Made by a program: the position numbers and the translations under genes. Under the pieces are notes generated by a model. That model saw only the letters and a program-made list of their open reading frames with translations, did not search any database and was not told the DNA's origin. Shown here piece by piece: positions 21,940 through 24,633 of a stretch of DNA of 64,000 bases. Numbering within the stretch: the stretch's first letter is position 1; each line of letters starts with the position of its first letter. Location: contig JBHLMQ010000003.1 of assembly GCA_048938005.1 (NCBI GenBank), positions 1-64,000 of the forward strand, given 5' to 3'. The stretch is from Promethearchaeota archaeon. Its GTDB lineage: Archaea; Asgardarchaeota; Lokiarchaeia; Sigyniarchaeales; SOKP01.

Positions 21940-22812
21940 ATGGTTGACATAACCAGAGCAGTTAAAGAAATACAAGAGAAATATAAAGTAATTGGCAGAA
22001 CCGAAGAATTAAGACAAATTGTTTTAGCACGTTCAGTAGGAAAGAATATATTAATCGAAGGTGAAGTTGGCGTCGGAAAAACGACTTTAGCTAGAGCTAT
22101 AGCTTCTTTTTTTGATGCTGATTTCTATCGTGTTGATTGTAGCGAGGAGTTATTACCTCATAATCTTGTTGGTTACTTTGATCCTCCTCTCGTAATTTCA
22201 CAAGGTTATACAGAAGATTCCTATAAATATGGGCCATTAGCTTTAGCTATGCTGAATGGTGGATGTCTATTCATCAATGAAATAAATAGGATGCCAGAAA
22301 GTACTCAAAACTCATTATTAACATCATTAGATGAGGGGATACTTGAAATACCTAAATTAAAAACAATAAAAGCTCATAAAGATTTTTTTGTTGTGGCTAC
22401 TCAAAATCCTAAAGCCCATGTTGGAGTTACTGTTTTAGGAGAAGCTTTAATAGATAGATTCATATGGATTTTTCTTAATTATCAAAGTCCTGAAGAAGAA
22501 ATTTCAATTATTAAGCAAGAAGCAAATTTAAATGGCGGAATTGGTGATAAGATAGCAAAAATTTCACAAAATATCATTCAAGTTACTAGAGAAAGTACTT
22601 CTATCCGAAGAGGAAGTTCAATAAGAGGAGCTATAGATTTAGCTACGTTAATCAATCAATACGATAACAACAGTAGTACTAAAAACTGGGTTGAAGCCGC
22701 TGTAATGGCATTATATAACAAAATTGAACTTGAGGATGGATTAACTCAATCTAAAAAAGAAATAATCACTAACATCGTATTAGCTGTATTAAATAAATCG
22801 GATTTTCAATAG
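21940..22812 (+). CDS. MoxR-family AAA+ ATPase
   Basis: GEVGVGKT, INEINR, ATQNP, EALIDRF, SIRG; ends SDFQ*. Confidence 0.9.
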   Translation: MVDITRAVKEIQEKYKVIGRTEELRQIVLARSVGKNILIEGEVGVGKTTLARAIASFFDADFYRVDCSEELLPHNLVGYFDPPLVISQGYTEDSYKYGPLALAMLNGGCLFINEINRMPESTQNSLLTSLDEGILEIPKLKTIKAHKDFFVVATQNPKAHVGVTVLGEALIDRFIWIFLNYQSPEEEISIIKQEANLNGGIGDKIAKISQNIIQVTRESTSIRRGSSIRGAIDLATLINQYDNNSSTKNWVEAAVMALYNKIELEDGLTQSKKEIITNIVLAVLNKSDFQ

Positions 22813-23921
22813 TCGATGATTTCTCTGAGGAAGAATCCGAAGAGATTGAGAAAAGGCTGCATGTTAGACTTACTGAAAGTCGCCCAGATAAAGAAATATT
22901 AGAGTATGAAATTATCAGAAAAAAGAGGAAAAAACCAGATTATTATAAACATTTAGCTAATACCCTCGATTATAAACAAATTAAAGAACTTACGTATTTG
23001 GCGATCCAATATAAAAACCTTGAAGCTCTAATGGGATTGCTGAAAGCAAATGTATATGCTGCTACAGATGCTTTAGATACTGAAGAAGGAGTAAAGTTTT
23101 TCTCAGAAAAAGCCAAAGAATCTGGCGAATTTATGCCAGAAATCTATTTCTTTATAAGACGTCCTATTTCTGAAAAATATAAATCAATTTTTAGGCGTTT
23201 AGCACGCCAAAGTATTTTAAAATTATCTTTAAAAATAACAAGCAGGGGTATTAGAGGCCAATTCAAAAAAACTGTTCCCTATTATCAAATGGGTATGCCT
23301 GAATTTAGTATGGATGAGACAATCCAACATAATCCTCTAAAAATTTATAATAAAAGTTTAAGTTACAAAGATATTTTTGGAATTGAAAGAAAGCGGCAGA
23401 AAAGAAAAGTGGTTTTAATATTAGATACTAGTGGAAGTATGTATGGACGTTTACTACTGAATGCTGCTCTTACAACATCAGTTTTAGCTTATAATATGGA
23501 AAAAGAAGATTTTGCTATTGTATTATTTAATTCGACTGCAATGGTTATGAAAAAAATAGATCAGAAAAAGCCAATTATATCTATTATCGATGATATTCTA
23601 GATTCTGAAGCTGTGGGATTTACAAATATATTTATTGGATTAGAAAAAGGATTAAAAGAATTAAATAAGACTAAAGAAAACAGAAAAAGTCGGTTTGGGA
23701 TTCTTATCTCAGATGGCAATTACAATAGAGGTGAAGATCCGGTTGTTTTAGCAAAAAAATATCCAAAATTGCATGTTATAGGAATGCCTGCCGAAAATGA
23801 TGCAGATCAAGGCATTCATACTTGTCGAGAAATTGCAAAAGTAGGTGGAGGGAAATTCTATGCTGTAAATGATTATAAAGAAATACCAAGAGCCCTAATA
23901 GAATTATTATCACAAACTTAA
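22797..23921 (+). CDS. vWA-domain protein; frame open from 22797 with no ATG/GTG/TTG until 22998
   Basis: DTSGSM MIDAS, GFTNI, ISDG; 67 open codons upstream of the TTG overlap the MoxR 3' end in the -1 frame. Confidence 0.85.
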   Translation: MGFSIVDDFSEEESEEIEKRLHVRLTESRPDKEILEYEIIRKKRKKPDYYKHLANTLDYKQIKELTYLAIQYKNLEALMGLLKANVYAATDALDTEEGVKFFSEKAKESGEFMPEIYFFIRRPISEKYKSIFRRLARQSILKLSLKITSRGIRGQFKKTVPYYQMGMPEFSMDETIQHNPLKIYNKSLSYKDIFGIERKRQKRKVVLILDTSGSMYGRLLLNAALTTSVLAYNMEKEDFAIVLFNSTAMVMKKIDQKKPIISIIDDILDSEAVGFTNIFIGLEKGLKELNKTKENRKSRFGILISDGNYNRGEDPVVLAKKYPKLHVIGMPAENDADQGIHTCREIAKVGGGKFYAVNDYKEIPRALIELLSQT

Positions 23922-24051
23922 TTTTAAAATTTTATATCGATTTTAAAATTTATAAAAAAAGAATTTATTTTTATTGATCAAATACAATTATAAAATCAAT
24001 ACAGATAAAAGAATAAAAATATTTTAAATATCTAATAAGGGTGGGTATCTT

Positions 24052-24633
24052 ATATCTGAAGAAGAGATCAAGACAAGATATATATTCAAAATTTGCCTTA
24101 TTGGCAGCGGGGGTGTAGGGAAAACATGTATTGCTCGAAGATTATGCTTAAATACTTTTGATGCAAATACTCAATTGACTGTTGGAATAGATTTTTATAC
24201 TTATGACATCCCTATCATAGCTAAAGGAGAAGAGGCATCTGTTAGACTCTCAATATGGGATTTTGGAGGGCAAGAGCAATTTAAGACTTTATTCAAATAT
24301 TATATTGGTGGGGCGAATGGAATTTTCTTAGTTTTTGATTTATTAAATATGGAATCGTTAATAAAATTAGATTTTTGGTATAGTAAATTAATAGAATTCG
24401 GACTTGAAGATCATCCAAAAATTCTTGTTGGAACTAAACTTGACTTAGTAAAATTGGAGGATAAACAATATAGAGTTGATAAGCTAATTATTCAGCAGTT
24501 CCTTCAAAAGCATAATGAAAAAGATTATGTGAAAACATCATCTAAAGACAATACTAATATCCTCCATAGTTTTAAAGAGATGGTGAAAAAAATAATGGAT
24601 TATCACGAACTTGAGTATAACGCAATACTGTGA
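24052..24633 (+). CDS. Rab/Roc-like small GTPase (probable ATA start)
   Basis: In-frame FKICLIGSGGVGKT lies upstream of the ORF-track start 24175; WDFGGQ, GTKLD, TSSK; AGGGTGGG SD-like motif 6 nt before ATA 24052. Confidence 0.85.
   Translation: MSEEEIKTRYIFKICLIGSGGVGKTCIARRLCLNTFDANTQLTVGIDFYTYDIPIIAKGEEASVRLSIWDFGGQEQFKTLFKYYIGGANGIFLVFDLLNMESLIKLDFWYSKLIEFGLEDHPKILVGTKLDLVKLEDKQYRVDKLIIQQFLQKHNEKDYVKTSSKDNTNILHSFKEMVKKIMDYHELEYNAIL

Follow-up and report, generated by a model that had tools for sequence, protein, structure and literature searches.

How is a protein made from a reading frame that opens without a start codon? This question is raised by a pair of overlapping reading frames in a 64,000-nucleotide stretch of archaeal DNA (Promethearchaeota archaeon, GenBank assembly GCA_048938005.1, contig JBHLMQ010000003.1, positions 1 to 64,000 of the forward strand; hereafter the window, with a base composition of 30% GC). 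An open reading frame (ORF) for a MoxR-type AAA+ ATPase of 290 amino acids (aa), taken from the ORF list and its translation, occupies the 0 frame at 21940-22812 (+) and ends in TCG GAT TTT CAA TAG, with the stop codon at 22810-22812. The frame of a von Willebrand factor A (vWA) protein overlaps this end in the -1 phase. It runs from stop to stop over 22797-23921 (+; 374 codons, stop codon at 23919-23921), opens directly after a TAA at 22794-22796 (+) that forms the 5' limit of the stretch allowing a shift, and has as its earliest ATG, GTG or TTG a TTG at 22998-23000 (+), codon 68 of the open frame. An earlier note on this DNA had described the same arrangement, and all its coordinates proved right. 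We propose that the MoxR and vWA frames are one recoded gene, joined by programmed -1 ribosomal frameshifting at the heptamer G_GAU_UUU (22800-22806, +), a reading to which we assign, on comparative evidence, a probability of roughly 0.78.

The candidate slippery heptamer lies in the correct phase, as had been claimed for it, and its A-site codon UUU would re-pair perfectly with UUU after a -1 slip. We compared 82 orthologous loci carrying both genes: 30 from the genus of the window, 23 more from its genus, order or class, and 29 covering 20 families of the phylum (53 of the 82 belong to the window's class; one further locus ended before the ATPase gene). Relative to the ATPase, the vWA frame was found at -1 in 76 loci, at +1 in four, where the vWA gene has an ATG, GTG or TTG of its own, and in frame as a fusion in two. 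All 76 of the -1 loci contain an in-phase heptamer of the type NNN-YYY-N, in which A-site re-pairing is possible, and the distance from this heptamer to the ATPase stop is 3 nucleotides (nt) in 56, 0 nt in 19 and 6 nt in one. The heptamers found were G_GAU_UUU, A_GAU_UUU, A_AAU_UUU, A_AAU_UUC, G_GGU_UUU, C_CCU_UUU, C_CAU_UUU, C_CUU_UUU, U_UUU_UUN and, once, A_AAC_CCU; A_AAU_UUU, G_GGU_UUU, C_CCU_UUU and U_UUU_UUN, all from other lineages, are perfect slippery sequences. In six other lineages a -1-frame TGA stands immediately 5' of the heptamer, which leaves about ten bases in which a shift could take place and makes upstream initiation impossible there. A slip motif alone is cheap, and in-phase T_TTT occurs at 1.9% of codons in the long ORFs of the window; its conservation in phase beside a stop, with a start-less -1 frame behind it, in 76 of 82 loci is, judging from the aligned loci, not chance.

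The bases within the heptamer point in the same direction. Outside the window's family the first base equals the second (X1=X2) in 36 of 42 loci, and four of the six exceptions are U_UUU_UUN. Within the family (n=68), X1 is G in 53 sequences, A in 13 and T in 2, and this G is spread over the codons TCG, ACG, GCG, TTG, CTG, ATG and GTG before GAT, with one TCG before AAT, while G makes up 10.5% of third positions in the long ORFs of the window and TCG 5.8% of their Ser codons. As far as alignments can tell, this X1 pattern is a signature of tandem slippage. Furthermore, a 26-base core (22799-22825) around GATTTTCAATAATCGATGATTTCTC is near-invariant in 68 species-level genomes of the family, drawn from at least ten genera, and the linker behind it varies freely. 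The synonymous sites of this core (+) are almost invariant across the 68 species, although the ancestral hairpin described below appears to be gone from them.

Ribosomes that enter the vWA frame at the heptamer would translate the segment ahead of its first canonical start, and this segment bears the marks of coding sequence. This start-less segment (22813-22997, +), which contains no ATG, GTG or TTG, would encode an acidic linker and the first helices of a helical domain. Its variable columns are distributed over the three codon positions as 37/24/54 of 62 codons, and 33 genus relatives differ from the window by 590 synonymous and 195 non-synonymous codon differences, with zero stops; by these measures, it is a segment that evolves as coding sequence. 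Orthologs of the vWA frame align from residue 1-2 within the genus and from about residue 2-30 across the phylum. An AlphaFold model of the frame (mean predicted local distance difference test score, pLDDT, 83) begins with a low-confidence acidic stretch at residues 1-30 and continues into a confident helical bundle at residues 31-151, in which helices 31-41, 47-54 and 59-71 lie in or across the start-less part.

Relatives in which the two parts are fused in frame were also found. Two of the 82 loci (L083, 715 aa; L084, 580 aa) are of this kind. A search of 1.84 billion representative proteins returned 754 matches at an expectation value (E) up to 0.001; among the best 150 of these 754 are proteins of 580-711 aa in which the vWA match is C-terminal, and each of five fused proteins that were scanned contains AAA_5/AAA_3 and VWA domains. 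One such protein (P0030, 711 aa) is 49% identical to ATPase residues 3-289, places ...SNSDF opposite ...NKSDF and then carries on in frame, its residues 384-706 aligning with residues 40-371 of the vWA frame. Other database proteins, P0003 and P0005 among them, begin inside the vWA frame.

Taken together, frameshifting is supported by the conserved heptamer class and -1 phase, by the lack of a conserved start codon, by the fused orthologs and by the absence of an indel. The comparison of orthologs proposed in the earlier note was thus borne out on the heptamer class, the phase and the missing start (76 of 82 loci) as well as on the in-frame fusions, and the indel check came out clean: environmental contigs from four runs in four studies span 22600-23100 without insertion or deletion. 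The sole site difference in these contigs is G>A at 22812, which turns TAG into TAA, the state of most relatives.

The mechanism would operate as follows. Most ribosomes would finish the AAA+ ATPase and stop at TAG 22810, giving the 290-aa product, and a fraction would slip back by one base on G_GAU_UUU, with tRNA-Phe moving from UUU to UUU and tRNA-Asp from GAU to GGA. The shifted ribosomes would go on through the acidic linker, the helical domain and the vWA domain with its metal ion-dependent adhesion site (MIDAS), producing a fusion of 289 + 371 = 660 aa counted from S4 of the -1 frame. The predicted fusion junction reads ...NKSDF|SIVDDFSEEE, with SDFSIVDDFSEEESEEIEK as its tryptic junction peptide. 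These are the 290-aa MoxR and the roughly 660-aa MoxR-acidic linker-vWA fusion that had been postulated before, and the postulate is upheld here by comparative evidence only. An AAA+ ring would then be built from the two products, with the vWA adaptor on some of its subunits; we infer the slip itself, its efficiency and the mixed ring.

The 0-frame stop (TAG, 22810-22812, +), which comes 3 nt past the heptamer, probably belongs to the shift signal. Pea enation mosaic virus RNA 2, of an umbravirus, has the -1 site G_GAU_UUU_UGG_UAG, and in the passages available from a recoding review a change of this stop to a sense codon is reported to reduce frameshifting strongly (PMC5009743). A stop one codon past the site would probably aid the shift in the archaeal gene as it does at the same heptamer in the virus, and its position 0-3 nt after the heptamer in 75 of the 76 -1 loci fits such a role.

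In most other lineages a second element is found downstream. Outside the window's family, the 50 nt that begin 3 nt after the heptamer fold with a mean z of -1.23 relative to segments of the same gene (43 loci), and z falls below -1.5 in 14 loci. The best simple hairpin ranks in the top 5% of control positions in 18 of 41 loci and in the top 10% in 23, with no hairpin in two, and its stem begins exactly 10 nt after N_NNU_UUU in 14 loci. Between lineages the stem arms are wholly different (GGAGGU/ACCUCC, GGGAAUUC/GAAUUCCC, AGGAAUU/AAUUCCU, GGAGAU/AUCUCC). In a MAFFT alignment of 13 sequences, which were picked for showing the hairpin and carry that selection bias, 93.6% of cells pair, compared with 70.3 ± 3.3% after shuffling (0 of 500 shuffles reach the observed value) and 36-69% in slid controls, and five of the six pairs change on both sides. 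With these 13 as seeds, a covariance model was made and run over both strands of 76 sources (335 kb); its 41 matches at E up to 1 all lie at the junction, and each of five whole genomes that had contributed seeds gave a single match. When the 41 matches are aligned by fitting to the model, a procedure biased towards structure, 92.8% of cells pair and all six pairs change on both sides. From this pattern, the hairpin 10 nt downstream probably helps the shift in most other lineages.

The letters that flank this hairpin recall a kink-turn. A k-turn consists of a canonical (C) helix, a three-nucleotide bulge and then G.A and A.G pairs 3' of it that lead into a non-canonical (NC) helix, as described in the portion of PMC5061560 at hand, and mRNA binding by L7Ae in archaea has been reported in the part of PMC5539422 that we cite. 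Of the 41 loci outside the window's family, 23 show the order GA, stem, NNN, GA at a distance of 3-15 nt from the heptamer, downstream of it, compared with 409 of 5412 control segments; the bulge is GAU or AAU in most loci, and 20 of the 27 rows with letters at the closing pair have G-C there. The stop codon belongs to the flanks, and these pair in register at 77 of 135 positions compared with 39-55 of 135 when shifted. However, the GA and GAUGA letters double as codons for a conserved Glu and Asp-Asp/Glu, and in many lineages the NC helix is weak. We offer a kink-turn at the cassette as a hypothesis: one may form there in lineages outside the window's family.

The window itself presents a different picture. 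Its GAUGA motif (22815-22819, +), kept in nearly all lineages, follows the hairpin elsewhere and here comes directly after the stop. The covariance model places 22800-22825 on the cassette as a match that lacks the hairpin (15 bits, E 0.91), and the encoded peptide of the window's family is FSI-VDDF as opposed to FS-x(8-15)-S/P-D-D/E elsewhere; to judge by these alignments, the family is one that has lost the downstream hairpin. RNAfold gives -12.7 kcal/mol for 22810-22859, and 1.1% of 178 segments of the same length from the same two genes fold as well. It also predicts a candidate hairpin, weakly supported, at 22822-22845 (+; UCUCU-GA-GGA-AGAA-UCC-GA-AGAGA), whose pairs are mostly conserved with few compensatory changes in 68 family sequences.

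Several other structures were considered for this junction and set aside. The stems suggested at first sight do exist as complementary words, TTTCTC (22820-25) with GAGAAA (22848-53) and TAGTC (22810-14) with GGCTG (22855-59), and there the support ends: no covariation appeared in 68 family members, in which the TTTCTC/GAGAAA stem is conserved. A kink-turn-like fold for the window's family, with a UAGUC/GAUUG outer and a GAUUU/GAAUC inner helix, pairs in 85.8% of cells with 0 both-side changes, no better than shuffles. The pairing of the slip site with ATTGAGAA that RNAalifold proposed within the genus is lost in genera with GAGGAGGAG. A box C/D-like arrangement, GAUGA-UUUC-UCUGA (22815-22828), was rejected as its CUGA is not conserved in the family, where TCT AAG, TCT GCG and TCA GAG variants occur. 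Rfam searches of four loci at E up to 1 gave weak tRNA- or tmRNA-like matches away from the junction only and none at the cassette.

A number of observations weigh against frameshifting. The heptamer of the window is not a perfect X_XXY_YYZ, since the P-site part would have to re-pair imperfectly, from GAU to GGA. Phe or Phe-Phe is conserved at the ATPase C-terminus, including in the in-frame fusions (NNFFRE, SDFFRS) and in the separate-gene +1 lineages, and to that extent the U-run is in part a reflection, as the alignments suggest, of conservation at the protein level. At 30% GC the run has a further explanation in codon preference, GAT being used at 89.5% and TTT at 77.4% in the window. On the RNA side, the RNAalifold consensus of 68 family sequences reaches only -2.47 kcal/mol, with no supported structure, the failed kink-turn-like fold of the family counts in the same sense, and the candidate hairpin at 22822-22845 starts 15 nt past the heptamer, a long distance for a stimulator. 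The biases noted for the 13 seeds and for the model-fitted alignment must be subtracted from the case for the hairpin of the other lineages. Two points that bear on start codons, the overlaps in eight loci and the neighbouring GTPase gene, are taken up with the alternative that they favour.

That alternative, the main rival, is that the vWA protein is made separately, by re-initiation near the ATPase stop on a non-canonical -1 codon: AUA 22809-22811 (AUAG) in the window, and UUG or AUG overlapping UGA elsewhere. TTGA or ATGA overlaps that would give a start codon are indeed present in 8 of 42 loci outside the family, by inspection at least one of the two codons at or following the stop is ATA or ATC in all 68 family sequences, and a GTPase gene 250 nt downstream seems to use an AUA/AUU start, so that non-canonical starts may be tolerated in the genus. 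Nevertheless, the codon overlapping the stop varies (ATA, TTA, CTA, GTA), with ATA 22809 not conserved outside the family and no start-like codon conserved across lineages; in many lineages 20-60 codons pass without an ATN or NTG; and no Shine-Dalgarno-like word lies 5' of 22809. Re-initiation also fails to explain why X1 equals X2, why X1 is G in a genome this rich in AT, why heptamer and hairpin keep a fixed distance and why the fusions continue exactly after ...DF, and we consider it unlikely.

Slippage could alternatively occur during transcription, with RNA polymerase stuttering on the T-run, so that a base is lost or gained in some transcripts, and the edited mRNA being read normally as a fusion. 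The site is a homopolymer and some lineages have 6 to 8 T, but the window and most lineages have only 4 T. A run of four is shorter than those known to cause appreciable transcriptional slippage. In favour of this reading, long A-runs are held partly responsible in the chelatase genes discussed below, run length correlating with efficiency, in the section of PMC3711429 on which we draw. Codon phase, hairpin spacing and the identity of X1 with X2 are ribosomal features, and slippage by the polymerase is a very improbable source of the fusion.

Slightly less probable again is an internal canonical start for the vWA protein at TTG 22998, with the open frame upstream left untranslated. The TTG exists, and gene callers use such starts; yet across 30 loci of one genus the earliest canonical start wanders among codons 20, 28, 34, 64, 67, 72, 78, 85, 86 and 112. 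The upstream segment is coding-like and conserved across the phylum from about residue 10-30, it holds three helices of a confidently predicted domain, and residues 40-67 align with the in-frame fusion protein. TTG 22998 is thus probably not the vWA start, because a start there would cut helix 59-71 of the predicted helical domain and because the first starts shift within the genus. Finally, an assembly or sequencing indel in the T-run, homopolymers being error-prone, or a decaying pseudogene is hardly credible when the same arrangement recurs in 68 species-level family genomes and 76 of 82 loci, the contigs from four studies show no indel and both frames are under purifying selection.

The identity of the two parts was established from domain searches. 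The ATPase scores above the curated Pfam thresholds of AAA_3 (77.7 bits, cut-off 27) and AAA_5 (71.1 bits, cut-off 22), which places it in the MoxR class of AAA+ proteins, and its Walker A spans G41-T48 (22060-22083, +). Its closest solved structure is an uncharacterised MoxR (2r44, 74.2 bits), and its similarity to NorQ and CbbQ is low (E about 1e-8). Midasin (Rea1/Mdn1) was rejected as a specific relative: the 137 bits obtained against midasin chains in the PDB are a total summed over several AAA modules, the best single module, at 41.9 bits, falls below the 74.2 bits of bacterial MoxR 2r44, and the match is best read from these scores as a generic AAA_5 relationship. The Walker B motif (N113-E114, 22276-22281, +) is hhhhNE (LFINEINR) in place of the usual DE; NE is also found in the in-frame fused homologues P0030 and P0035, and EE in P0034 and P0043.

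The vWA frame matches Pfam VWA at 40.6 bits (cut-off 23.8) over residues 205-364. The DxSxS motif of its MIDAS (D210, S212, S214) lies at 23424-23438 (+), and the MIDAS is complete, D210, S212, S214, T276 and D306 being invariant across 17 aligned homologues. The ATPase is therefore adjacent to a vWA domain with a complete MIDAS, as in MoxR-vWA pairs. A fold search with the vWA model retrieved BatB (3ibs, E 5.5e-08) and the vWA protein NorD in complex with NorQ (9qh6, E 1.4e-06, template modelling score 0.42). Elsewhere in the same genome are two paralogous large vWA proteins (L002, G000:C97, and L003, G000:C43; 829 aa and an 879-codon open frame), which are kept across the genus as open frames of 828-885 aa. 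Both begin with a long charged region, and behind each gene lies a conserved ORF of about 490 aa. Neither is an ATPase fusion.

The cassette extends beyond the Asgard archaea. We found it in two metagenome-assembled genomes (MAGs) of Hadarchaeota and one of Bathyarchaeota. In the Bathyarchaeota MAG (L153, 1474-1540) the same heptamer and the GA-hairpin-GAUGA arrangement are present and the 0-frame stop comes 15 codons later; its short product would bear a 17-residue tail, and this locus is a natural variant with respect to the role of a nearby stop. A far-reaching and doubtful extension of our proposal would make the cassette an ancient archaeal recoding signal common to Promethearchaeota (Asgard), Hadarchaeota and Bathyarchaeota. 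The GA, C-helix hairpin, GAU bulge and GA would form a kink-turn bound as a roadblock by L7Ae, an abundant k-turn protein of archaea, frameshifting to -1 would depend on this trans-acting factor, and the slip rate would set the number of tailed subunits per AAA+ ring, paralleling eukaryotic midasin. Midasin combines an AAA ring, a D/E-rich linker and one MIDAS tail, an order that the predicted fusion (AAA, acidic linker, MIDAS) mirrors as a parallel only.

With regard to neighbouring genes, the window also encodes a Ras-family small GTPase and an archaeal Nre protein. Among 134 loci, an FTR1 permease flanks the pair in 17 and a Ras-like GTPase in 31, in only part of the genus, and no third conserved partner of the pair emerged from these loci. 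The GTPase stands beside the pair in 28 genus loci and in L057, L146 and L147, and does so in Borrarchaeum/Sifarchaeum-type MAGs too, at 32% identity; this adjacency may be due to chance or to a functional link. In the window the GTPase gene (24025-24633, +) has its P-loop GSGGVGKT upstream of the first ATG, GTG or TTG (TTG 24175). Its frame opens after a TAA at 24025-24027, and an ATA at 24052-24054 follows 6 nt past a GGTGGG Shine-Dalgarno-like word (24040-24045). At the corresponding site behind GGTGA, orthologs in the genus carry ATG, GTG or TTG, several of them ATT alone, a sequence pattern that suggests use of AUA and AUU start codons in the genus.

If frameshifting is confirmed, the cassette would be far older and more widespread than the archaeal fucA1 case considered below, being present in most of the Asgard families sampled and in Hadarchaeota and Bathyarchaeota. 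Hundreds of genomes, in which the vWA protein is now called from arbitrary internal starts, would need a corrected annotation, and AAA+/vWA machines outside the chelatases would be seen to use recoding to obtain tail-less and tailed subunits from one message. The cassette would also serve as a natural test of a kink-turn-like hairpin and a nearby stop as frameshift stimulators on archaeal ribosomes. A literature search returned no description of the MoxR-vWA cassette (the supplementary cluster tables of PMC3711429 were outside this search). From its sequence, the cassette is a real and deeply conserved recoding candidate, a variant of a known AAA+/vWA frameshift theme.

Among published systems, the frameshifted chlD gene comes closest (Antonov et al. 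2013, PMC3711429; Kuznetsov et al. 2022, PMC9227772; reviewed in PMC5009743). In the parts of these papers that concern us, chelatase genes have been shown to yield an AAA-vWA fusion by -1 frameshifting (PMC3711429): a single locus encodes an AAA+ subunit and, when ribosomes shift to -1 close to where the AAA+ frame ends, an AAA+-linker-vWA subunit as well. These loci are likewise annotated as two adjacent genes, have in-frame fused homologues and occur in archaea and bacteria. However, the present proteins belong to another family. Membership of ChlI/ChlD (BchD, CobT-like) was rejected, the NCBIfam models being matched far below their cut-offs, with 23.6 bits for BchD-ChlD TIGR02031 (cut-off 499.55) and 27.9 and 18.4 bits for cobaltochelatase TIGR02442 (cut-off 779.45); no link of the MoxR-vWA cassette to tetrapyrrole chelation turned up, in work that included no search aimed at one. 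The sites differ as well. The chlD sites described in the passages at hand are A-runs of 7-11 (PMC3711429, PMC5009743), whereas ours is a U-rich N_NNU_UUU and not A_AAA_AAR or poly-A. The signal of the MoxR-vWA cassette is also distinct in its stop 0-3 nt past the site and, in most lineages, its hairpin flanked by GA and GAUGA.

As for the site itself, the umbravirus offers the nearest likeness, with an identical heptamer G_GAU_UUU and a 0-frame stop 3 nt downstream. Unlike the cellular archaeal gene, this is a plant RNA virus that, by the cited account, uses eukaryotic ribosomes and a long-distance RNA interaction; moreover, the first three bases of the heptamer vary between archaeal lineages (A_AAU, G_GGU, C_CCU, U_UUU). 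With respect to protein partnership, NorQ-NorD (9qh6, 9qhd) and BatB-type pairs likewise combine a MoxR-class AAA+ protein with a neighbouring MIDAS vWA partner, but there the partners are separate proteins with start codons of their own.

Among cellular archaeal genes, fucA1 of Sulfolobus solfataricus is the only -1 frameshift with experimental support, according to the available text of a review of archaeal recoding that lists only fucA1, haloviruses and the chelatase case (PMC8211752). It resembles the MoxR-vWA cassette in that the gene is divided between the 0 and -1 frames and has both a heptamer and a putative stem-loop. In contrast, fucA1 shifts on A_AAA_AAU, is confined in this form to a few strains and has full-length relatives, and the MoxR-vWA cassette is present in at least three archaeal phyla.

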